Shown here: positions 18 through 10,438 of the stretch, one piece after another
Numbering within the stretch: position 1 is the first letter of the stretch
Layout: every line of letters begins with the position of its first letter
From: Acidobacteriota bacterium
GTDB taxonomy: Bacteria; Acidobacteriota; Thermoanaerobaculia; Thermoanaerobaculales; Thermoanaerobaculaceae
NCBI GenBank assembly: GCA_003158745.1
Contig: PMLC01000163.1
Coordinates: 24,080 to 88,079, forward strand
Length of the DNA stretch: 64,000 bases
Reading direction: 5' to 3'
Program-made: the position numbers and the translations under genes
The notes under the pieces: model-generated
The model's input: only the letters and a program-made list of their open reading frames with translations
Told to the model about the DNA's origin: nothing
The model's database searches: none

Positions 18-950
18 TCACTTCCTTTCGCGTCCCGTAGCACGCAGATCGTCGAGCAGGCGGCGGTTCACTGCGGTCAGGTCGGCGAGCACGCCAAGGA
101 CCGAGAGCTGGACGCCGGTGATCGCGAGGACTGCGGCAACGATGAGGGACTGGACATGTCCGGCCGGCGAGATTCCAGTCAGGAAGAAGTACCCGAAGCG
201 TGCGGCAAGCGCCAGCGCAGCAACCCAGCAGAGTGTGGCGAGCGACAGGAGGATTCTCAGCGGCCTATAGATGAAGACCAGCCGCAGAAGCGTCGCCAGC
301 GAGATCAGCACATAGGCCAGATTGCTTCGGAAGAGGCGCGACGGGCGGGACACGGGGTTCGTGGAGACGGAGACTGAGCGGACAGTGAGGCCTGTCTGGC
401 CGGCCTGGATGAGCGTCTCGAGCGTGTAGGTGAAGGTCGTGACGCAATGCACGCGCGCGGCGGCCGCGCGAGAAAACGCCCGAAAACCGGTCGTCGCGTC
501 CGCGAGCGGAACGCCCGACAGCACTCGAACCACCCAGGCGCCCAGGCGTTGCAGCCAGCGCTTGAGGGGGGAGAAGTGAGCGAGCGTCGCGACTCCCCGG
601 TCGCCGAGGACGATGTCCGCGTCACCCCTGAGGATCGGTGCCACGAGGTCTCCGATTGCGGCCGGGTCGTACTGACCGTCGGCGTCGGTGTTGACGATGA
701 CGTCGGCTCCGCGGCGCAGCGCGGCTTCGATGCCGACGGTGAACGCCCTCGCAAGACCGCTGTGCACTGGCAGCCTCACAACCGATGCGCTGCCCGCGCG
801 AGCGGCGTCCGATGTCGCATCGGTCGAACCGTCGTCGACGACGAGGATCTCGATCGAATCGAAACCGTCGAGAGCACGAGGTAGAGCGCCGAGCACTCCG
901 GGGAGGCTGTCGGCCTCGTTCCACGCGGGAATCTGAATGACGAGCTTCAC
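18..950 (-). CDS. Glycosyltransferase family 2 with C-terminal TM helices (GtrB/CsbB-type polyprenol-phosphate sugar synthase-like)
   Basis: ORF 18..1532 trimmed to GTG 948-950 (VKLVIQIPAWNEADS...), with GGAGG 5 nt upstream. VVDDGSTD and DADGQ GT-A motifs. Three hydrophobic C-terminal segments. The start overlaps the stop of the upstream gene (GTGA, 947-950). Confidence 0.8.
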   Translation of the reverse strand: MKLVIQIPAWNEADSLPGVLGALPRALDGFDSIEILVVDDGSTDATSDAARAGSASVVRLPVHSGLARAFTVGIEAALRRGADVIVNTDADGQYDPAAIGDLVAPILRGDADIVLGDRGVATLAHFSPLKRWLQRLGAWVVRVLSGVPLADATTGFRAFSRAAAARVHCVTTFTYTLETLIQAGQTGLTVRSVSVSTNPVSRPSRLFRSNLAYVLISLATLLRLVFIYRPLRILLSLATLCWVAALALAARFGYFFLTGISPAGHVQSLIVAAVLAITGVQLSVLGVLADLTAVNRRLLDDLRATGRERK

Positions 951-3268
951 GCGAGCCTCCGTGGGGCAGCCAGCAGGACGATTGCGATGAGTGCCGCCGA
1001 AGCCACTCCCCAGACCTGGGGAGGCAGCTGCGCCTTCAGTTCGACGCGGGAAGGGCCGGCCGGGAGCGCCACTCCGGTCCAGACCCCATCCACCCGTTCG
1101 CTCCGGGCCGGGCTCCCGTTGACCGCGGCCTTCCAGAGCGCGGGCCGGTACTTGATCCGAAATACTAGGAGTCCAGGCGCGGCCAGGTCGCCGCGCGCCT
1201 CGACCGCGGCAGGTTCTACTCCGACCACCTTGACGTTCCCGACGCCGCCGGCAAGCGGGCCGAGCGCGGCGACTCGGGCGTCGGGCACGGTGACGACATC
1301 GTGGTCGGCCGGAGGTGAAGCGGTTTCGCCCATAAGCCCTCGGGCCAGGAAGGCGAAGGGCTTCACGGTCGCCCACTCCCAGACTCGGACGCCACGCTGC
1401 TCGGGGCCGAGAAGCAGGCCGGAAGTGTCCCAGGCGACCGGCAGGGTGCCTTCTGAAAGAGGGTGGCCTGCGAAGACCGTCAACAAGGTGGGACCGGAGG
1501 GAAAGTCCACCGGGACGCTGAACCAGGTCCACGCCGCGCTCTCGGCCTGCAAAGCGTCGTCCGGGTCGAGCTCGGCATTGCGGCCTGCCGTTTCGAGGCG
1601 CGCCCGAACCGGGCGTCCCGCTTCGGAGGGAACGCCGAGACGCGTGGCGCCGTACGGAACGACCGCGTGCAGGTGAAGGGTAGCCCTGTCCGGCTGTCCG
1701 TCCTGGGCCTTCGCAAGCTCGGCGATCTCGATGCGGGAGAACACCTCACCCGAAACCACGCGCAGGGGCAACGGCTCGAGCAGCCACCTCGCCCCCAGCC
1801 GGACCATCCGTGAATTGACGCCTCTGGATACAGGGATCTCACCGCCCCTGCCGCCGCCGACCAGCAAGGCATAGTGCGGCTCGCGCGGGAACGATGAGGC
1901 CCGCACGTCCGCGAGGCCCAGCAGGGCCGCCGAATCGGGCGGCATCGTCCCGAGCAGGCCGACGAGACGCCAGGTCTGGGTGTCCACGCTCCTGGGGAGC
2001 GGCGCCGCAAGCTCCGTGTCCTCCGAGGGAATGAACGGTAGGTGGTGCGCTGCCTTGCTGACCAGGGAGAGCGAGAGCAAAACCCACACCGCGGCCGAGA
2101 GGGCGTCGGCGATTGTCCGCCGGTGAAGCCGATCGGTCAGCGCCTGCGCACCGTAAGCCGCAAGCGTGGCGACGCTCAGCGCCAGGACTCCATAGGGACG
2201 CTGGTAGAGCCCAACATGGGTGAGGATGCTGCTCGGGACCGAAACGACGGCCGCGCTCACGCCCGCGACACCGAGCCAGAAGCCACGCGTACGCGGCGGA
2301 GCGGCCAGGAGACCGAGCACTGCGAGGGCCATCGTCCCGAGCCCGACGTACGCGAAGCTGTCCGATCTCGCCTGGAGTTCGCCGACGCCAACTGGAATCG
2401 CCGATTCATCAGGCGCAGGTTGGGCCACGATCGCCGAAACCCAGCTTCGGATGGGAGGCATGGTCTGCAGCGTGGGCGCCGGTGCGCCCGGCTCCCCTCC
2501 GGTCCCGGCGAGCCAGATGCGGGGAAGCGCTACAGCGAACACCAGCGCGGCCGCCAGCGCCGCCGGGAGCCAGAGCGATGACCTCTTGCCCCGCGGGCTG
2601 AAGAGGATCGCGATCGCAGCCGCAAGGGCCACAAACGCCATCGCCGGTGCGCCGCATGCGGCGAGAACGAGGACCGCAAGAGCCCACACACCGGCGCTCC
2701 TCCATTTTCCTCGTGGAGGCGAAATCGCCGGCACGAGAGCGAGGGGCCCCAGCGCGAGTGCGGAGCCCTGCCAGTCGAGCCAGTGCCCGGTCACGGCGCC
2801 GGAGAACGCGTACGCGGTCGCGCCGACGGCGGCGGGCCACGCGCCCAGCCCGAGCAGCCGCAACGTCCACCATGTCGTCAGCAGCGCTGCCGTCAGTTCG
2901 AGTGCGATGAGGCCGGTCCATGCCCACCTTGGCCTGGCAACGACTGCGGACAGGAGGACGAGCGGGGCGCCGCCCTGTTCGGGTCCTGCGAGCCAACCCG
3001 GGCGGCCCCCACCGATCCAGGGGTTCCAGAGCGCGACCCCGAGCGGTTTTCTCGCGAGGCTGGCGAGCCGCGGACCGAGTTGCGTTGCGGCATCGAAGGC
3101 CTCTGCCGATGGCTTGGGAAGGGGCCCCGAGAGCTCTCGCCAGGGAGGCGCGCTCTTCAGGCTGGCCTCGGGCGCGATGCGGCAGTCGAGAAACAGCGCA
3201 GGGTAGAGGAGGGTGAGCAGGATAGCGACGATGAACAGCAGACAAACCCGCGAAGCGCCTCCCCGCAT
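947..3268 (-). CDS. Large polytopic membrane protein, YfhO/GT-C-like glycosyltransferase candidate with soluble C-terminal domain
   Basis: ORF 947..3478 trimmed to ATG 3266-3268 (MRGGASRVCLLFIVAILL...). Many hydrophobic segments in roughly the first 470 aa, then a ~300-aa non-hydrophobic C-terminus. TACAAT ends 6 nt upstream of the ATG. Family call rests on topology and pairing with the GT2 gene only. Confidence 0.6.
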   Translation of the reverse strand: MRGGASRVCLLFIVAILLTLLYPALFLDCRIAPEASLKSAPPWRELSGPLPKPSAEAFDAATQLGPRLASLARKPLGVALWNPWIGGGRPGWLAGPEQGGAPLVLLSAVVARPRWAWTGLIALELTAALLTTWWTLRLLGLGAWPAAVGATAYAFSGAVTGHWLDWQGSALALGPLALVPAISPPRGKWRSAGVWALAVLVLAACGAPAMAFVALAAAIAILFSPRGKRSSLWLPAALAAALVFAVALPRIWLAGTGGEPGAPAPTLQTMPPIRSWVSAIVAQPAPDESAIPVGVGELQARSDSFAYVGLGTMALAVLGLLAAPPRTRGFWLGVAGVSAAVVSVPSSILTHVGLYQRPYGVLALSVATLAAYGAQALTDRLHRRTIADALSAAVWVLLSLSLVSKAAHHLPFIPSEDTELAAPLPRSVDTQTWRLVGLLGTMPPDSAALLGLADVRASSFPREPHYALLVGGGRGGEIPVSRGVNSRMVRLGARWLLEPLPLRVVSGEVFSRIEIAELAKAQDGQPDRATLHLHAVVPYGATRLGVPSEAGRPVRARLETAGRNAELDPDDALQAESAAWTWFSVPVDFPSGPTLLTVFAGHPLSEGTLPVAWDTSGLLLGPEQRGVRVWEWATVKPFAFLARGLMGETASPPADHDVVTVPDARVAALGPLAGGVGNVKVVGVEPAAVEARGDLAAPGLLVFRIKYRPALWKAAVNGSPARSERVDGVWTGVALPAGPSRVELKAQLPPQVWGVASAALIAIVLLAAPRRLA

Positions 3269-3354
3269 GGCGCCATTGTAGGGCGTCGCGCGCGCGAGCG
3301 CAGGATGGTCTCCCGTCGGATTCCTTGCTGCTAAGCTAAACGGGGGGGGTGCGA

Positions 3355-3693
3355 ATGTCTCGGGTTCCTCTGGAGCGCCTGGCCCACGGTCGTTCGGGAG
3401 ACAAGGGCGACGCCTCGAACATCGGGCTGATCGCCCGCGATGCCACTGCCTATCGCTGGCTGCGCGAGAACCTGACACCGGAACGCGTGAAACAGCTGCT
3501 CCCTGGTATCGCTCAAGGCAAGGTCGAGCGGTACGAGGTGCCGAACCTCCTGGCCCTCAATTTCATCCTTCACAGCTCCCTCGGGGGGGGAGGCACGGCG
3601 AGCCTCCTCACGGACGCGCAGGGCAAGACGCACGCCCAGGCGCTGCTCCGTTGTCTTGTCGATGTGCCGGACGAACTGCTCGCTCAACTTTGA
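3355..3693 (+). CDS. Small DUF4387/AtuA-C-terminal-like protein (tentative)
   Basis: ORF 3349..3693. ATG 3355 lies 5 nt after a G8 run (SD-like). The N-terminal RSGDKGDASN motif is recalled from DUF4387-type proteins, from memory and unverified. Confidence 0.5.
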   Translation: MSRVPLERLAHGRSGDKGDASNIGLIARDATAYRWLRENLTPERVKQLLPGIAQGKVERYEVPNLLALNFILHSSLGGGGTASLLTDAQGKTHAQALLRCLVDVPDELLAQL

Positions 3694-3719
3694 TGAAGGC
3701 CGCCCGCGCGCCTGTCAAG

Positions 3720-3750
3720 TTGACAGCCTGTGACCTCACCGGCATACTCT
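3720..3750 (+). promoter_or_regulatory. Candidate sigma-70 promoter of tRNA-Phe
   Basis: TTGACA (3720-3725), 17-nt spacer, CATACT (3743-3748), about 17 nt before the tRNA 5' end. The -35 sits inside a 7-1-7 palindrome CTGTCAAgTTGACAG (3712-3726). Confidence 0.5.
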
Positions 3751-3765
3751 CCCGGCCTGTGGAGT

Positions 3766-3841
3766 GCCCAGGTAGCTCAGTTGGTAGAGCACGTGACTGA
3801 AAATCACGGTGTCGCCGGTTCAATTCCGGCCTTGGGCACCA
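3766..3841 (+). tRNA. tRNA-Phe (anticodon GAA), CCA encoded
   Basis: GCCCAGGTAGCTCAGTTGGTAGAGCACGTGACTGAAAATCACGGTGTCGCCGGTTCAATTCCGGCCTTGGGCACCA. Canonical D-loop, anticodon loop CTGAAAA, T-arm GCCGG/TTCAATT/CCGGC, and a 7-bp acceptor stem with one G-U pair. Confidence 0.95.
3793..3841 (+). repeat. attL core (inside the intact tRNA-Phe)
   Basis: 3800-3841 is identical to 10397-10438 (42 bp). The match extends to 49 bp with a single mismatch at 3799 (G, anticodon position 34) versus 10396 (T). Confidence 0.9.
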
Positions 3842-3869
3842 ACTAATCTCAAGATCGCGCCACCCCCGA

Positions 3870-3889
3870 TTCAACACCGGTTCAACATC
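3870..3889 (+). repeat. Arm-type repeat TTCAACACCGGTTCAACATC (attL-proximal)
   Basis: Exact 20-mer also present at 10235-10254 in the same orientation. It contains GGTTCAAC, which also occurs in the tRNA T-arm/core (CCGGTTCAA, 3815-3823). Confidence 0.7.
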
Positions 3890-4146
3890 GGGGAGGCTTA
3901 CATGGTCCCCGTCCCGCTCCCCGCTGCCGCCCCGGCCGCGCAAAGTCGCCTCGCCGGTACGTGTTTGCGCCCGGAGGGAGAGATCGCGGCTCCTGGAGCC
4001 TCGTAGCGAGGGGGTACGAAAGGGGCGACGCGGCTACCGCTCGAGTTCCGCTGGCCCCGTCAGTGGCAGACCAGAACGCCGACGCCCTGCTAAGCCCGGC
4101 GATGCACCGGTCTATCCCATCGCCAGAGCCGCACCGACGGTAGGTC

Positions 4147-4467
4147 CTACCTGACCCTGCGCCAGGCGATCTTGCCCGTCAGTGTCAGGTCGTCGTTCAT
4201 CGTCACCCGGGCTTGCCAGGCTTCAGCTCCGAGTTCAACGGCCCTCGCCTTCATCGCAGCGGTTTCTTCGCCGCTTAGGAATTGGGGATCGTTGGGTGAC
4301 ACGCTGGTCTTCACCTGAACGAGAACATGCCGCCTGCCCCCCAGAGCCTCGATGTCAGCGGCACTGGGTAACGTTGTGTCCCAGGCTTGGATCTTGAAGC
4401 GCCTGCCCTGCAGCTGTTCGACAACATGAGCCTCGCCCGCCCGACCAATTTCCTGAGCAGTTGCCAT
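4147..4467 (-). CDS. Small PD-(D/E)xK-fold nuclease-like protein (Hjc/YraN/Mrr-like core), 106 aa
   Basis: GGAAGGAG RBS before the ATG. Motif order is G-x-x-GE (E12) ... AADIEAL (D38) ... VLVQVKT (Q51-x-K53), followed by an alpha/beta tail ARAVELGAEAWQARV. Confidence 0.6.
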   Translation of the reverse strand: MATAQEIGRAGEAHVVEQLQGRRFKIQAWDTTLPSAADIEALGGRRHVLVQVKTSVSPNDPQFLSGEETAAMKARAVELGAEAWQARVTMNDDLTLTGKIAWRRVR

Positions 4468-4506
4468 TGCGATCTCCTTCCATTCTCACGACTTCCTCCG
4501 AGTTCC

Positions 4507-4869
4507 TCACTCACCCGTTCTACTCCGCTCGAGCGGCCACCATTCCAATCGCACCAGCTCCATGTCCGGCCCCACGAACACTCTCGCCTCCCACGCCTCA
4601 CCGCCAGCGCGGACCGCTCGCTGCCGAAGCTCCTGCTTTTCGTCTGGTGATAGCTTAGCGGGCTCGGCAGGAGCGATGGCCGCGTTGACCCGCACGGAGA
4701 TGTTCTGTGAGCCCGTCCAAGCCTCGAGGATTGCCGATCCGGCCGCCCCAGGCCAACGCCGCATGATCGAGAAGTGCAGCTTTCCGAGGGCGCCGATGGC
4801 GTGCCCTTCCGCCACTTCGTCTACCTTGAGCGTCGCAGTCAACCGGCCTCCCGAGAAGACGTGCAGCAT
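4507..4869 (-). CDS. Paralog of the 4147..4467 product with substituted catalytic positions (predicted inactive), 120 aa
   Basis: Aligns without gaps to the neighbour at an offset of 9 residues. D38 becomes I47 and Q-V-K becomes R-V-N. C-terminal QRAVRAGGEAWEARV matches ARAVELGAEAWQARV. No obvious RBS, so the start is uncertain. Confidence 0.55.
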   Translation of the reverse strand: MLHVFSGGRLTATLKVDEVAEGHAIGALGKLHFSIMRRWPGAAGSAILEAWTGSQNISVRVNAAIAPAEPAKLSPDEKQELRQRAVRAGGEAWEARVFVGPDMELVRLEWWPLERSRTGE

Positions 4870-4995
4870 CGTACGCCGATCGCGGGTCCCCCGCGTCGAC
4901 CGGAAACAGCAGGGGGCGCCCGAAGGCGTCCCGCTATCCTATCTTCTGACCGCACTCCGACGAACTTGCCACTCCAGTTGTTCCGCGTCAGCTCC

Positions 4996-6033
4996 TCACG
5001 GGCAGCTCACCGGATTCAGGTTGCCGTCGTAGTTCCCAATGCAGTGATAGACCCCGCCAGCGCCGTTGGACAGCGGGTCGGGGATTTGCGTGTACGCCAT
5101 ATAGATCGTCTGCCCGGCATCGTTGGAGATGTCAGTGTTGCAAGAAAACTGCGTGCGCCACACCTGGGCCGCGTGGCCCTGGCTGCCGGCGGTGAAAATC
5201 CCGTAGGCGGTGGTGTCCGCGCCGGCGTCAATGAAGCTGTCGTAGATGAACAGTTCTGAATTGTAGCTGAAGACCCCGATCGTGTACAAGCTGCCGTTCT
5301 CCCCAAAGATGTGGACGTGATCGAGCGTGAGAGTTGTGCCTAGGGCATAGAGCACGTAAGTATTGGCCCCAGTGTTGGAATTCGTGAGATAGACGTTGCT
5401 CACCTCATTCGTGCCTCCACTGGTACCCACCACGTAGATCAGGTTGTTATTGCTCGCGATGGTCGTGGAGTTCTGACCGGCGCCGTCGAGGTTCACATAC
5501 GGCGCCAGGTACAGGCCCGCCCCATTTAGGTCGAATATTCCTGGGCCGACCTTCACCAACCAAGGGTTGGTGCTTGATGGCGCCTCGGCGCCCGTGATCG
5601 GGATCGCCGCCACCATCGAAAGCAGCTCGGTGCCCGAGTTGACATTCGAGTTGGCCTCGGCCGCCGGGTGGTGGAAGACGAGCACCGTGTGCGGCGGCCA
5701 GTTCGATGTCCCTCGCATCGCGTGCTCGATGAACACAGCCATCTGGTCGCGGGTGACGGGCGTGCCGGGGCAGTACTTGCCGCCGCCGCAGCCGGCAGTG
5801 ATGCCGTCAAGACCGAACTGCTCGATCCAGGGGTCGAAGCCAGTCGTGCACGTGATATCGGAGAACGGTACCCCCGGCACGCACGTCGGCGGGGTGTAAA
5901 GCCCGAGTGCCCCCGCCTCGAACGTCTTCAATGTCGGTAGCACCGGCGGCGCCGCCACTTGCGCAACGGCCGGCGTCAGCGTTGCCCATAGAACGATGAA
6001 AGCCAGAATCCCGAGCCTTGACAGTGTTCTCAT
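4996..6033 (-). CDS. Secreted protein: signal peptide, single SLH-like motif, C-terminal beta-helix-like repeats
   Basis: ORF 4996..6426 trimmed to ATG 6031-6033 (MRTLSRLGILAFIVLWATLTPAVAQ), with GGGAAGGGGAAAG upstream. FSD...WIEQFGLDGITAGC...YCPGTPVTRDQMAVFIEHA resembles an SLH motif. The Asn/Gly/Thr-rich tail has alternating hydrophobic residues. Confidence 0.65.
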   Translation of the reverse strand: MRTLSRLGILAFIVLWATLTPAVAQVAAPPVLPTLKTFEAGALGLYTPPTCVPGVPFSDITCTTGFDPWIEQFGLDGITAGCGGGKYCPGTPVTRDQMAVFIEHAMRGTSNWPPHTVLVFHHPAAEANSNVNSGTELLSMVAAIPITGAEAPSSTNPWLVKVGPGIFDLNGAGLYLAPYVNLDGAGQNSTTIASNNNLIYVVGTSGGTNEVSNVYLTNSNTGANTYVLYALGTTLTLDHVHIFGENGSLYTIGVFSYNSELFIYDSFIDAGADTTAYGIFTAGSQGHAAQVWRTQFSCNTDISNDAGQTIYMAYTQIPDPLSNGAGGVYHCIGNYDGNLNPVSCP

Positions 6034-6645
6034 AAACTTTCCCCTTCCCGCCTCGCCTTCGGCAAGGCAGACGCAGAGAAACGTCGGTATCACCGTCTGG
6101 CACGCTGTGCGTGGCGTGCTCGCCCCACTGCGCTTCGATCTTCTAAGAAAACCCTGAGCGACCCCAGCGCATTCCCGCGACCTGCGAGCGCGCCCCGCGA
6201 CGTTGGGGGGGTGCTGCTCGACCGAGCCTACGACAGGTCCCTTCAGGCAATCGGGCCTGAAGAGAGCGCCCAAGGGGTGAAGCTGTTCATTGACCTGGTC
6301 CCAGGACCCGCCTACACGCCCGCCATGCAGGCAACCCACGAGCCACCGAGGACCTTCGAACCGAACCACATTCCGCGCCAGATAACGACCGGGCCGAACC
6401 GCGCCCTCCGAGACCCTTAAGAGCAAGATGAGCAGAGAAACGGTAGGCTCTGCTCATGACACCGCCGCCAGAGCAAGACCCCGCGCCCGCCGATCCGCCT
6501 CAGCTGTCTCTGGTGCGGCGGCCCGATGCGCGAGCGGGACCCCATGGAGCTGGCCCGGCTCCATGTGCCCTCGCGCGATTGGTCGGTGATGGTGGGCGAT
6601 CGGCGCGAGCGGACGACCCGGAAGGAAAACTAACCCTTCCAGACA

Positions 6646-7215
6646 CTACGAACACGACAAGCACTTACTCACAGAGATGGACGCCGTGACTGATCTGACG
6701 CTCGCAGCGATGTACTCAGGTATGTCAGCACCCACAAGCGATTGAAATTTGCTGAGTCGGCCAGAGATCAGTTCCTCAGGCGGGCCTGTCACAGCCGTTA
6801 GAACGAAGCCATCCTTGTCCAGAAGCTGAAACTCGAAGTTCACCTCGTAATACACCTGGTCGGAAGGGTGCAGAGTGACGGTTCGTCCAACCGCATCGAC
6901 CCGAGTGAAGTCCTTTCGATACTTCTCCGGGACCGTCTTGAGGTCGAGTGGTGCCATCTCTACCTGGATTCCGTAGCCAAGATGGAAGATCGAGGGCTTC
7001 CGCATGTCGGGGACCAGCTTCGCACGGCCAGTCGCCGACTTTATGTCGGGCGGAGCTATCCCAGAGAACATCACTTCGTCTGAGTAAAGTTGCCCAATGC
7101 TGCCAAGAGTCCGCCATTGCCCTGAAACAGATGCTGCTAGATAGGGGTAGGCGACCCACACGGTCAGCACTGCCGCATAGATCAAGACCAGCCAAGAGAT
7201 GAACTTGCCCCTCAC
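6646..7215 (-). CDS. N-terminally membrane-anchored hypothetical protein, 189 aa
   Basis: GTG start 7213-7215 preceded by AGGGGGTGAGGA. One TM segment (FISWLVLIYAAVLTVWVAY), then a beta-rich soluble domain. Lowest-G+C gene in the window: hand counts of two 60-nt lines give 57% and 50%. Confidence 0.6.
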   Translation of the reverse strand: MRGKFISWLVLIYAAVLTVWVAYPYLAASVSGQWRTLGSIGQLYSDEVMFSGIAPPDIKSATGRAKLVPDMRKPSIFHLGYGIQVEMAPLDLKTVPEKYRKDFTRVDAVGRTVTLHPSDQVYYEVNFEFQLLDKDGFVLTAVTGPPEELISGRLSKFQSLVGADIPEYIAASVRSVTASISVSKCLSCS

Positions 7216-7258
7216 TCCTCACCCCCTGGTTTCTGGCACAACCCTACGACATCGAGCT

Positions 7259-7726
7259 TCACCTTCTCGGAAATGCGCTGCACTCCTGCCGCTCGAACTT
7301 GTCCTTCGCCTTCGATGCCGCGATCGTTTGCCACTGCATATTGCTCGGCGCGTCTGCTCCGCCGGCACACAGCGGCTCGATGTGGTCGATGATGTAGCCG
7401 GGGCAGGAGCCGGTGCTCCTCGCGGTCGATGGGCAGGGGTGCAGATGCTTGAAATCGTGTTTTGCCTTGAGGCTGCGCTTGACCTTGGGCTTCCTCGTGG
7501 TCTTGTGCGGCGTGTGCATCTTGGAGTTGCTTTTGTGTAATCCGCTGCTCGAGGTCTTGCCGGCGAGCGTGAGACCGGACGCCAAGGACGCCACAAGGAC
7601 CACGGCCACGATGGCGGCCCGCAGCGACGCAAGCAGGCCCAACGGCAGAGGAGCGTGACCGTTCCGCTCGCTACTCACTCCCCGAGAATGAACCGGTACG
7701 AACGGGCTTGCAAGCAGAAAGCTCAC
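7259..7726 (-). CDS. Secreted/periplasmic HNH endonuclease family protein
   Basis: C-terminal CPGYIIDHIEPLCAGGADAPSNMQWQTIAASKAKDKFE matches the small HNH family pattern (DHIxPL..GG.D..SNMQWQT...AKAKD), recalled from memory. Hydrophobic signal-like segment LLASLRAAIVAVVLVASLASG. Start codon uncertain (GTG 7726 or GTG 7678). Confidence 0.65.
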   Translation of the reverse strand: MSFLLASPFVPVHSRGVSSERNGHAPLPLGLLASLRAAIVAVVLVASLASGLTLAGKTSSSGLHKSNSKMHTPHKTTRKPKVKRSLKAKHDFKHLHPCPSTARSTGSCPGYIIDHIEPLCAGGADAPSNMQWQTIAASKAKDKFERQECSAFPRR

Positions 7727-7775
7727 AGGGAGCCCGAAGGCGCCCCGTGACCGGGACTGACACCAGGTCGATCAG

Positions 7776-7824
7776 ACGAAAAGAACCCCGGAAACCGTAG
7801 GGCCATGTTCTACGGTCCCCGGGG
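7776..7824 (-). terminator. Strong intrinsic terminator inside the island
   Basis: Minus strand reads CCCCGGGGACCGTAG-aacatggcc-CTACGGTTTCCGGGG. This gives a 15-bp stem (two G-U pairs) followed by TTCTTTTCG. It lies about 50 nt upstream of the HNH gene and downstream of the int-side genes. Confidence 0.7.
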
Positions 7825-7901
7825 CCACAGCCCGCTGGAAAGGAGGTCAGCGGGCCGCTAAGATCGTCAGGGGCGAGGCCGGAGCCCCGCCCCCCGATCT
7901 C

Positions 7902-8054
7902 CTACTTCCTCGACGGCGGCAGGGGCGCCGGGATTACCACATTCGCTCCCGCTGGCGCCTGGGGCTTCGACGGCTTCTGCGCGACGACCTTGGAGCCGGG
8001 GACGGAGATATCGACTGTGTGGGTCGCACTGCCGCTTCGAGAGCTGTTGCCCAT
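7902..8054 (-). CDS. Possible 50-aa ORF (MGNSSRSGSATHTVDISVPGSKVVAQKPSKPQAPAGANVVIPAPLPPSRK)
   Basis: Found by hand; it is below the ORF-track length cutoff. GGGAGA sits 8 nt before ATG 8052-8054. It is followed by GC hairpins and the 7776-7824 terminator. No recognisable family. Confidence 0.3.
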   Translation of the reverse strand: MGNSSRSGSATHTVDISVPGSKVVAQKPSKPQAPAGANVVIPAPLPPSRK

Positions 8055-8268
8055 TTCTTGGTTCTCCCTTTGGGCTCAAAGGCCCGGGTCCGTGGTGCGT
8101 TCAAATCGTCTGAGACTTCCCGGTACTCGCCGGGTCGCTCTTGTTGACGCTCGCAGCCAGCGGGGCGAGAACGCTTTTCGCCATTCGGGCATGGGAGAGC
8201 GCCTGTCCAGCGTACGATATTGGTTTACAGTCACTTATAAGTAGACGTTTGACGGTGCGAGCAAGGCG

Positions 8269-8961
8269 TCAACGTATAAGAGGACGTTTGCCAGGGTGGC
8301 CGGGGCGGTGGGGGAGTGGCAGCCGTTTGCACAGCGACTCGACGGCGCGGCGGATCGGCGCTAGAGCATCTTGGTCGGGGTGGCCCTCGATCTCACGGCG
8401 CTGGCGTCCGAGGTCGTCTGCAATCTCTGCCGCATCCCACCCTCCGCACTGCCACAAAGCCGCCGCCTCAAAGTGCCAGGAAGGGAGCGCGCGTTGCCGC
8501 GGACCAAGCCCCTGAGCGGCGGCCTCGATCTCCCGAAACCGCGCGCGCACATTTTTGAGAATGCGCTTCTCCACGTCCGCCCGTCTCTCCAGATGGGGAA
8601 GGTAGTCCTCCTCGATGGAAATGAGCCGCTGCTTGCGCGATCCGAACGAACAGCCGCCCCCATCAAGCGAGGGCCATACGGGTGGGGAAGAGAGATCAGG
8701 GAAGCGATCGTAGTACCGGAGAGCTGTCTCCGCGGCCTCCTGGACCCAATCGGCTTTGAGGAAGAACCACCCTGCCCACCCGTCCAGGGCTTGCGCTCCG
8801 CCATCCACTTTCCAGGCGGGGAGCACGTCGCGGACGAGCGCATCGAGGACCTCTGGAACCCTTCGTTCGACCGCACGAAGAAACTCGATTCGGGTTGCCC
8901 CTTGCACTACCGCCCTAGCCGCGAGTTCGCCGCCCCCGAGTCTAACTGTCGGGCCGGCCAT
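8269..8961 (-). CDS. Hypothetical protein, 230 aa, closely following int
   Basis: ORF 8269..9039 trimmed to ATG 8959-8961, 1 nt after the int stop (TAG 8963-8965). C-terminal GGWDAAEIADDLGRQ is HTH-like. No family recognised. Confidence 0.55.
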   Translation of the reverse strand: MAGPTVRLGGGELAARAVVQGATRIEFLRAVERRVPEVLDALVRDVLPAWKVDGGAQALDGWAGWFFLKADWVQEAAETALRYYDRFPDLSSPPVWPSLDGGGCSFGSRKQRLISIEEDYLPHLERRADVEKRILKNVRARFREIEAAAQGLGPRQRALPSWHFEAAALWQCGGWDAAEIADDLGRQRREIEGHPDQDALAPIRRAVESLCKRLPLPHRPGHPGKRPLIR

Positions 8962-8962
8962 G

Positions 8963-10198
8963 CTACTGAGCCCCCACGGCCGCGAGGCGTGGCACGGGGA
9001 AGGCCAGCACGTCTGCCTTGTCCTCAGGAGCGTCGGCAATTGCGAGCATCGCCTTCACAGTTGCCTCGACGGCCTGGCGCACGAGGTCGGTGTGGACGCG
9101 AGCGTAGATCGCCGTGATTCCTCCCGGCTGTGTGTGCCCTAGAAGGCGCGATATCACCTCGATCGGCGTCCCGGCCCCGACCGCATAGGTCACGAAGGTT
9201 CGGCGCAGCGTGTGAGGCGACACCTTTGCAACGCCACAGGCTTTCACGATTCGGCGCCAGCCTTTTTGTGGCACCTGATTCAAGTACCCCTTGGCCGCGC
9301 GAGGGGAGGGGAACACGGCCTCTGTGCTCTCCGGCTGCAACTCGCGGCGCCCCCTCAGGAGTTCCACAACGGGGGAGGCGAGCGGTAGCACCAGCGGGCG
9401 CCCTGCCTTCATCGCCGAGGCCGGGATTTTCCAAACCCCGTCGCGGAGGTTGAGGTCGGACCAGGCGGCCGCCTTGAGTGTACCGGCGCGCACACCGGTC
9501 AAGAGCAAGAGCAGGACGAAATCTCGCACGTCCGCGTCGGGCTCCTTGCGAGCGGCGCGAATGAAGGCCCGGAGTTCCTTCGGCGCGAGGTAGCGCTCCT
9601 TCGCCGCCTCGCGGTTGCGGGGTGTTCCGCTCACGGGGTTGTTGAGGTCAAGGCCCCACTCGCGGGCCTTTTCGAACATCGTGTGCTGGAGCGCACGCAC
9701 GCGGTTCGCCTGCACGGGGCCTGCCTTGCTCTTGACCTTCTCGAGCAGGCGCACAACCTCGGCGCGCTTGATAGAGGAGAGAGGTCGCGAACCGACGGCG
9801 GCGCGGAGGCGGAGCTTCCACCGCTGTTCGTCCTGCTTCCAGTCGCGCTTGTTCGCTTTCGCGTGGCGGTCAAGGTACATCGTCCACAACTCGGCGCCCT
9901 TCATCTCCCACTTCACGGCGCGGAGTTTCTCCGCGGGATCCTCGCCCTTGCCGCGGTCGACGTTGTACTGTCGCGCCACCTGGCGCACGTCCTCAACGGC
10001 CTGCACGTCCTCGAGAGGAGCGATGCGAACGCGCTCCACCTTCGAGCGAACCCGGCGCACCCAATAGAACACCTTCGAGCCGGCCGGGGTCACGGTCAGC
10101 ACGAGCCCCGGCGTGGTGGGGTCGCGGTAGTCAAACCGCTTGGGGCGAGACTTGAGGGCTGCCAGAGCCTTGAGGTCGAACGGTGTTGTGCGTGACAT
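8963..10198 (-). CDS. int: Tyrosine recombinase/integrase, P4-like with N-terminal arm-binding domain
   Basis: 411 aa. AGGAG sits 5 nt before the ATG. N-terminus ...GLVLTVTPAGSKVFYWVRR (DUF4102-like). C-terminal HTLRRTF...LLGH...YAR catalytic-region motifs. Confidence 0.9.
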   Translation of the reverse strand: MSRTTPFDLKALAALKSRPKRFDYRDPTTPGLVLTVTPAGSKVFYWVRRVRSKVERVRIAPLEDVQAVEDVRQVARQYNVDRGKGEDPAEKLRAVKWEMKGAELWTMYLDRHAKANKRDWKQDEQRWKLRLRAAVGSRPLSSIKRAEVVRLLEKVKSKAGPVQANRVRALQHTMFEKAREWGLDLNNPVSGTPRNREAAKERYLAPKELRAFIRAARKEPDADVRDFVLLLLLTGVRAGTLKAAAWSDLNLRDGVWKIPASAMKAGRPLVLPLASPVVELLRGRRELQPESTEAVFPSPRAAKGYLNQVPQKGWRRIVKACGVAKVSPHTLRRTFVTYAVGAGTPIEVISRLLGHTQPGGITAIYARVHTDLVRQAVEATVKAMLAIADAPEDKADVLAFPVPRLAAVGAQ

Positions 10199-10230
10199 CG
10201 TGACTCCTAATCACGCGGCCGGGGCCGCAT

Positions 10231-10254
10231 TCGGTTCAACACCGGTTCAACATC
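10231..10254 (+). repeat. Arm-type repeats (tandem CGGTTCAACA CCGGTTCAACA) between P_int and int
   Basis: tCGGTTCAACACCGGTTCAACATC. Shares the 20-mer with 3870-3889. Lies in the int 5' leader, 33-56 nt upstream of the int ATG. Confidence 0.7.
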
Positions 10255-10297
10255 TTTCTGAGACGGCTCGGTCACGTTTGCACCTCACCTCAAAGGA

Positions 10298-10327
10298 ATA
10301 GTAAGCGTAGCTCATTTTTTTTGTAAA
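10298..10327 (-). promoter_or_regulatory. Candidate int promoter
   Basis: Minus strand reads TTTACA (10327-10322), 18-nt spacer, TACTAT (10303-10298). The arm repeats lie in the resulting ~100-nt leader. Confidence 0.5.
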
Positions 10328-10389
10328 GGTTGCGGAGGATTGTGCGGAGTTGCGAAATGTCTCTCAAGACCCCTCAATTGCGACAGCTT

Positions 10390-10438
10390 GTGACTTAAAA
10401 TCACGGTGTCGCCGGTTCAATTCCGGCCTTGGGCACCA
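10390..10438 (+). repeat. attR core (partial tRNA-Phe 3' half, not a functional tRNA)
   Basis: GTGACTtAAAATCACGGTGTCGCCGGTTCAATTCCGGCCTTGGGCACCA. There is no matching 5' half (no acceptor or D-arm) upstream. Confidence 0.9.

Follow-up and report, generated by a model that had tools for sequence, protein, structure and literature searches.

Paralogous small proteins with a predicted PD-(D/E)xK nuclease fold, one of them degenerate, encoded by a putative mobile cassette in Acidobacteriota

Introduction

Can a minimal nuclease and a catalytically degenerate copy of it form a two-gene module on mobile DNA in bacteria? The question is raised by two short neighbouring genes in a stretch of 64,000 nucleotides (the window) of contig PMLC01000163.1 from an Acidobacteriota bacterium. 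Their products of 106 and 120 amino acids (aa) are called P1 and P2 in the following, and L-numbers (e.g., L006) denote other loci that were compared with the window. A sequence-only reading of this DNA had described the genes as a tandem pair of an active and an inactive PD-(D/E)xK-like paralog, had suggested an obligate heterodimer and had proposed a two-gene nuclease module that was new to description. Our tentative best guess is that P1 cuts DNA as an endonuclease and that P2 serves as its facultative pseudo-nuclease partner.

Results

P1 and P2 are diverged paralogs

Both open reading frames (ORFs) exist as described, 39 nt apart on a common strand; this is the minus strand, and P2 is transcribed first (Table 1). 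When residue i of P1 is set against residue i+9 of P2, every residue pair listed in the sequence-only reading is correct, and so are the three replacements by which P2 was said to depart from P1 (D38 by I47, Q51 by R60 and K53 by N62). At this offset the two proteins have 30 identical residues, compared with a mean of 12.7 (standard deviation 1.6) and a maximum of 19 in a shuffle control that took the best of 15 offsets in each of 2000 shuffles. BLASTP aligned P1 and P2 without gaps at 33% identity over 86 aa (E=7e-14), and the profile-profile comparison of the two families with hhalign gave a probability of 99% (E=2.7e-18). P1 and P2 are true diverged paralogs.

P2 probably begins at residue 10, a TTG at position 4842 that is preceded by a GGGAGG Shine-Dalgarno sequence, and a P2 product of 111 aa is reported by some gene callers. 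With this start, P1 and P2 would be collinear from the N-terminus. From the common strand and the short spacer with its Shine-Dalgarno sequence we infer that P2 and P1 are co-transcribed; a promoter and terminator scan found neither a sigma-70-like promoter nor a terminator for the pair.

Both proteins are assigned to the PD-(D/E)xK superfamily by fold

AlphaFold2, supplied with a 31-sequence alignment, yielded a model of P1 with a predicted local distance difference test score (pLDDT) of 88.7 and a predicted template modelling score (pTM) of 0.80, and a model of P2 with a pLDDT of 78.9; the topology of both is a-b-b-b-a-b-b. In Foldseek searches against the PDB, both models matched archaeal Hjc resolvases (probability 1.0, E ~1e-4 to 1e-2), with TMq values of 0.65-0.73 for P1 against Hjc (PDB 2wcw, 1gef, 2eo0). 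Archaeal and human tRNA-splicing-endonuclease (EndA/TSEN) subunits were among the top matches of both models as well (probability 1.0), and type II restriction enzymes, including HincII and SwaI, were found at lower ranks; the E range and probability given for Hjc apply to these matches too. A search of a viral structure library matched Holliday-junction resolvases and PD-(D/E)xK endonucleases. The structure searches, in which a non-nuclease fold would have spoken against the proposed nuclease module, placed both proteins with Hjc and EndA, in a nuclease fold. As judged from the models, P1 and P2 share the PD-(D/E)xK (restriction-endonuclease-like) core, alpha-beta-beta-beta-alpha-beta, and their membership in this superfamily is assigned by fold.

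Sequence comparisons point in the same direction at marginal scores. The YraN-type models NF009154 and PRK14675 of NCBIfam matched P1 with E=0.0011 and 0.041; the scores of 18.9 and 13.9 bits lie far below the corresponding cut-offs of 180 and 109 bits. A family profile built from 107 sequences, searched against PDB sequences, matched Hjc ST1444 (E=0.024), the UPF0102 protein RPA0323 (E=0.23) and further Hjc proteins (E=0.35-0.49), and in its alignments the GE of the family falls on the Glu of helix 1, D38 on the Asp of strand 2 and Q51-x-K53 on E-x-K. Pfam returned nothing significant for either protein, with no Hjc, PF02021 or Mrr_cat match even at E<=10 and a NikA-like match (E=0.25) as the sole one in the scan of P2; the PHROGs scan of P1 and P2 likewise gave nothing significant, and phmmer with P1 against PDB sequences found chance matches alone (LptD, tail fibre). 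The description of P1 as a minimal PD-(D/E)xK nuclease thus holds with respect to the fold, the weak YraN and Hjc matches and the E/D/QxK residues of P1, whereas its activity stays a presumption.

The EndA/TSEN matches bring up a different reading, in which the pair would be a splicing-endonuclease-like RNase with one catalytic and one structural type of subunit, similar to the alpha2-beta2 EndA of crenarchaea. Such subunits are indeed among the best Foldseek matches of both models, e.g., the short EndA chains from P. aerophilum (2zyz A/C, E=1.5e-4). However, the metal-independent Tyr-His-Lys triad has no conserved counterpart, positions 14 and 47 being variable across the family, and the residues that are conserved make up the acidic-plus-Lys set of DNA nucleases, while the sequence-profile matches are to Hjc and YraN. 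We rejected the RNase reading for its lack of a conserved triad and regard it as highly improbable.

P1 carries the full signature of an unnamed family

Searches with a word index brought up no more than ~30 close relatives, and each of them stems from Acidobacteriota metagenome-assembled genomes (MAGs) or metagenomes. An exhaustive profile search retrieved 278 clusters at 50% identity (E<=1e-3), 131 of which had E<=1e-10. The members are mostly stand-alone proteins of ~105 aa, are spread over bacterial phyla and Bathyarchaeota and have no Pfam model, and by its predicted fold the P1/P2 family is a new, unnamed family within the PD-(D/E)xK superfamily. Its consensus reads G-E...P-G-S-T-D-I-E-A...L-V-Q-V-K-T-A...P..P..L-S..E...R-A...A-W.A.V, with the signature residues placed in helix 1 (E), strand 2 (D-x-E), strand 3 (Q-x-K) and helix 2 (E). 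Among 147 representatives, E12 is conserved in 116, D38 in 102, E40 in 96, Q51 in 102, K53 in 111 and E68 in 137; position 51 is E in 5/147. P1 carries the full signature, E12 / D38-I-E40 / Q51-V-K53 plus E68, in which the canonical D/E of the strand-3 motif is replaced by Gln.

Some members are fused to additional regions: P0070 has a C-terminal zinc ribbon and a predicted membrane segment, P0078 and P0153 have long N-terminal extensions with hydrophobic segments, and P0071 is likewise a fused protein. The added regions of these four gave no significant Pfam domain. One fused family member matches PF02021 (E=0.004).

The conservation pattern bears on the possibility that neither protein is an enzyme. 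P1 and P2 could be nuclease-derived nucleic-acid-binding or scaffold domains, and the pair two binding subunits that serve, e.g., as accessories of island recombination or regulation. The consensus Gln at the second catalytic acid would fit this view, as would the fact that conservation is highest in structural columns (L19, A41, V52, P58, P61, A76, A86) and at E68, with only 70-80% at the catalytic positions, and that syntenic chromosomal orthologs tolerate K53R and D38X. On the other hand, the PGSTDIEA and LVQVKTA motifs are very sharp in the canonical branch, as is typical of an active site, and D...QxK is described as an active configuration in Mrr-type nucleases. We consider a purely non-enzymatic pair unlikely, though worth keeping in mind.

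P1 and its relatives resemble Mrr_cat (PF04471) in this D...Q-x-K arrangement with Gln for the second acid; unlike Mrr, P1 and P2 have no N-terminal DNA-recognition domain, and the Pfam scan gave no Mrr_cat match at the permissive threshold. With Hjc they have in common a single domain (~110-140 aa in size) with the a-b-b-b-a-b core, and the E, D and ExK of Hjc correspond to GE, D38 and QxK of the family. They differ from Hjc in that sequence similarity is marginal (E 0.02-0.5, with no match to the Pfam Hjc model), that the P1 family has Gln for the second acid and the extra conserved residues E40 and E68, and that Hjc is archaeal whereas P1 and P2 are bacterial and island-borne. The closest family by sequence is YraN/UPF0102 (PF02021), also a single-domain minimal PD-(D/E)xK protein, although P1 scores far below the cut-offs of the YraN models and its family has QxK where YraN has ExK. 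YraN has been described as a single-domain nicking and single-stranded DNA endonuclease that acts on transformation D-loops and works with ComM (bioRxiv 10.1101/2024.02.06.579203). It is a conserved chromosomal competence gene with a product reported to be monomeric, whereas P1 is encoded in a mobile cassette together with a degenerate paralog. No helicase consistently adjoined the loci seen, among which no search aimed at ComM was made.

P2 belongs to a distinct subfamily and is under purifying selection

While P2 carries I47, R60 and N62 for D, Q and K, it keeps E21, E49 and E77. The same pattern runs through the 22 sequences of the P2-like subfamily: an acidic residue at position 38 and Lys at position 53 are both absent (0/22 each), the commonest residues at position 53 are N, T and A, position 51 is mostly R or H, and E12, E40 and E68 are largely kept. 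The loss pattern is a stable alternative, as opposed to random decay. Measured by BLAST scores, the distance of P2 to the local P1 clade is about equal to its distance to members in other phyla.

Between the window and L006, P2 shows a nonsynonymous divergence (dN) of 0.263 and a synonymous divergence (dS) of 0.786, corresponding to an omega of 0.33, and P1 a dN of 0.043 and a dS of 0.096. P2 is under purifying selection. The ORF at 4507..4869, whose coding conservation had been put forward as a point to be checked, is thus a real gene, and the idea of a decaying pseudogene was rejected on the basis of its dN/dS and of intact ORFs in at least eight lineages. The end-anchored dN/dS of the L027 P2 gene (0.74) is unreliable owing to an indel and was not used.

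In all pairs compared, P2 is more diverged than P1 (80% identity versus 88%, 59% versus 90% and ~52% versus 74%), and its divergence rate is 2-4 times that of P1. The eight-fold gap in dS between the neighbouring genes (window 4147-4869 versus L006:10001-10723) indicates a recombination breakpoint near the 39-nt spacer, with which the sliding-window identity profile agrees. In the window and L006, nearly identical P1 alleles are joined to very different P2 alleles.

The pair behaves as a discrete cassette on mobile DNA

Pairs in the order P2-then-P1 were found in at least five lineages (window/L001-5, L006-11, L027-29, L038 and L041). The spacer has the same length of 39 nt at other pair loci, as seen when the spacers of the window, L006 and L027 were compared; this length was checked in window/L001-5, L006-11 and L027-29, and the L038 contig ends inside P1. 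The co-occurrence of the two genes in other genomes, which the sequence-only reading had left to be examined, is therefore found in at least five lineages with equal order and spacing, on mobile DNA.

The mobile-island setting proposed for the window could be confirmed by the tRNA-Phe gene, the 42-bp repeats and the integrase (Table 1). The island comprises ~6.6 kb (3842-10438) with a perfect 42-bp repeat at both ends, and 305 bp separate the pair from the intact tRNA, while the integrase occupies the other end of the island. Many metagenome contigs carry identical islands.

Table 1. Coordinates of the gene pair and of the associated island features in the window.
Feature	Coordinates	Strand	Description and evidence
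P1 gene	4147..4467	minus	106-aa single-domain PD-(D/E)xK-fold protein (predicted); downstream member of the pair
P2 gene	4507..4869	minus	Degenerate paralog, 120 aa (probably 111 aa); upstream member of the pair
Spacer P2-P1	4468..4506	minus	39 nt intergenic; strong Shine-Dalgarno GGAAGGAG ahead of the P1 ATG
Transferable cassette (putative extent)	4095..4930	minus	Sole stretch homologous (83% nt) to L006; blastn, sliding-window identity
tRNA-Phe (GAA)	3766..3841	plus	Island integration target; ARAGORN; Rfam tRNA 73 bits
Proximal 42-bp direct repeat	3800..3841	plus	3' part of tRNA-Phe, attachment (att) border; exact repeat search
Distal 42-bp direct repeat	10397..10438	plus	Other att border; exact repeat search
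Tyrosine integrase	8963..10198	minus	Pfam Phage_integrase 7e-22 + Arm-DNA-bind_3

In the metagenome contig L003, the corresponding tRNA-Phe gene carries another, larger insertion, and only the tRNA-proximal 2 kb, pair included, are common to both insertions. The homology of L006-L011 to the window is limited to 845 bp, consisting of the pair with ~60 bp upstream and ~50 bp downstream at 83% identity, and in these loci the cassette sits between unrelated genes and without a tRNA. Since the cassette is the only DNA common to unrelated contexts, the pair behaves as a discrete unit of ~0.85 kb. Judging from these homology limits, the cassette moves between different islands of Acidobacteriota; among the pair alleles, one is annotated in a Thermoanaerobaculaceae MAG and others in Acidobacteriia (Terriglobia class in GTDB) MAGs. 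Remnants of att sites beside the pair were found at none of the loci outside tRNA-Phe.

Further features of these elements were noted. The integrase gene adjoins the distal repeat and not the tRNA. The four other ORFs of the island (345, 189, 139 and 230 aa) gave no Pfam match, and an Rfam scan of the island detected the tRNA only. In the comparison of L003:7338-9874 with window positions 4996-6033, homology ends inside the 345-aa gene, and a second L003 gene contains the segment once more at 87% identity, which indicates that the 345-aa gene is mosaic or duplicated. One small set of genes, consisting of that for a 197-aa sigma-70 region-4 protein and of ORFs of 79 and 124 aa, is located upstream of the pair in L006 (7694-9637) and downstream of it in L027 (8682-10166), and its position on opposite sides suggests tandem or rearranged related elements.

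Discussion

A facultative partnership as the preferred reading

In the reading that we prefer, P1 would be a minimal DNA endonuclease similar to YraN and Hjc that requires metal and either nicks DNA or cuts branched or single-stranded DNA, and P2 would be a non-catalytic pseudo-nuclease that may still bind nucleic acid or P1. P2 would modulate P1, in the simplest form by joining it in an asymmetric dimer that has one active site only. Their association would be lineage-specific and facultative, and no defining property of the family.

Several observations weigh against this reading. Solo P1-clade genes, with 69-76% identity to P1, occur in five lineages (L019-22, L026, L030-35) and solo P2-like genes in three (L023-25, L036, L037), and the canonical-branch loci examined in genomes are single-copy in 7/7 cases. 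The dS of 0.10 for P1 as against 0.79 for P2 indicates that the two genes recombine independently, without tight co-evolution. The family has Gln at the site of the second acid of canonical enzymes, and the complete E/D/Q/K set is present in just 68 of 139 distant representatives, so degeneration is frequent. Close relatives of P1 vary at D38 (D/N/H/A/S/E) and six of them have Arg for K53, and an active P1 therefore remains an inference. Moreover, YraN was reported to be monomeric (bioRxiv 10.1101/2024.02.06.579203), so that dimerisation is not to be assumed from it. Since both subfamilies occur solo elsewhere and all seven distant loci are single-copy, the obligate heterodimer that had been suggested cannot be general. 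Across the loci compared, pairing is recurrent, yet lineage-restricted and facultative.

The seven canonical loci, which were found with a narrow PGSTDIEA alignment, belong to Rhizobium, Verrucomicrobiota, Bathyarchaeota, Armatimonadetes, Terriglobia, Pirellulaceae and one unclassified bacterium. The genes beside them are of various kinds (TnpB, Eco57I-type methylase, insertion sequence transposase, M78 peptidase, DnaE). The search of viral contigs with the same alignment found no relatives, and tblastn with P1 gave no match in annotated phages and plasmids. A metagenome scan with the P2 alignment yielded only three loci, all of known types. The MAG of L023-25 carries a pair as well as the solo P2-like gene, and a neighbour-joining tree of the P1 clade does not discriminate between a paired and an unpaired ancestor.

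Around several solo P1 orthologs (L019-L022, L026, L030-L032) the chromosomal neighbourhood is conserved: the gene of a GAF-SpoIIE phosphatase lies upstream, and that of an RRM_1 RNA-binding protein is close by. The non-coding region upstream of these same orthologs is unusually long, 300-580 nt. In L019, genes for two HNH_2 nucleases and for a UvrD-type helicase (936-4784) are located 3-7 kb upstream of the P1 ortholog, and these surroundings may represent a defence-type neighbourhood.

Alternative relationships between P1 and P2

The occurrence of both subfamilies as solo genes and the very different dS values, which speak for independent recombination histories, would also be compatible with uncoupled duplicates, P2 being a diverged copy that adjoins P1 by chance of duplication. 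Against a mere accident of duplication stand the recurrence of the gene order and the 39-nt spacer in five lineages while P2 identity falls to ~50%, the apparent movement of the cassette as a unit and the purifying selection on P2. We regard uncoupled duplicates as improbable.

A further alternative is an addiction module of the toxin-antitoxin type, in which a toxic nuclease P1 would be neutralised by P2, either through a dead heterodimer or through P2 acting as a substrate decoy, and the pair would thereby stabilise the island. The antitoxin-like order with a small gene upstream, the product sizes of ~110 aa, the 39-nt spacer and the compact mobile cassette at the island end resemble such a module, and the faster evolution of P2 (e.g., 59% identity where P1 is 90% identical) would be in line with it. 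Moreover, all five solo P1-clade lineages lack D38 or K53 (K53R or D38S), and the paired P1 proteins always retain K53. However, this correlation between solo status and motif loss comes from few lineages that are phylogenetically non-independent, and the full-motif distant members are single-copy in every locus examined, which argues that the intact protein is tolerated without P2. P1-clade genes stand alone, although a type II toxin would always be accompanied by its antitoxin, and P2-like genes stand alone too. In addition, Pfam and PADLOC reveal no recognisable helix-turn-helix, ribbon-helix-helix or AbrB DNA-binding domain in P2, whose predicted fold is that of P1. An addiction module is therefore an unlikely explanation, to be given about the same weight as a non-enzymatic pair.

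A bolder proposal can be put as follows: the cassette would represent a new kind of mobile module, complete in itself, in which P2 makes P1 a one-site asymmetric nickase or acts as a paralog-derived antitoxin, with a role in island maintenance or defence. We consider this quite doubtful, and we continue to favour an endonuclease P1 with a facultative partner.

A catalytic subunit combined with a paralog that keeps the fold and has lost the catalytic residues is a principle known from other nucleases. In crenarchaeal EndA the catalytic and the structural role fall to different subunits; XPF-ERCC1 and Mus81-Eme1 each combine an active with an inactive paralog. These are conserved housekeeping complexes that were established experimentally, whereas P1-P2 is facultative, lineage-restricted and known from sequence, and its putative chemistry differs from that of EndA. 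As to the statement that no named system with this layout was recognised, the PADLOC-DB v2 defence-system models gave no match to P1 or P2 at E<=10 and Pfam none of significance, but the concept as such has its precedents in EndA, XPF-ERCC1 and Mus81-Eme1. We know of no active/degenerate nuclease pair that has been described as a minimal two-gene mobile cassette in bacteria.

Significance of the pair and its family

The finding is a well-supported annotation and not a demonstrated new system. To our knowledge, most established cases of an active nuclease with a pseudo-enzyme partner are eukaryotic or archaeal, and if P1 is active and P2 is its partner, they would be among the smallest bacterial nuclease pairs of this kind known to us and would be encoded on a mobile cassette. 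Our work also draws attention to a sizeable family of at least 278 clusters (50% identity) of 105-aa nuclease-fold proteins that has so far escaped a Pfam model. The role of YraN in D-loop processing shows that minimal nucleases can have specific and important functions, and if the reading of the cassette as a new module is true, the 278-cluster family would constitute a new class of minimal DNA endonucleases.

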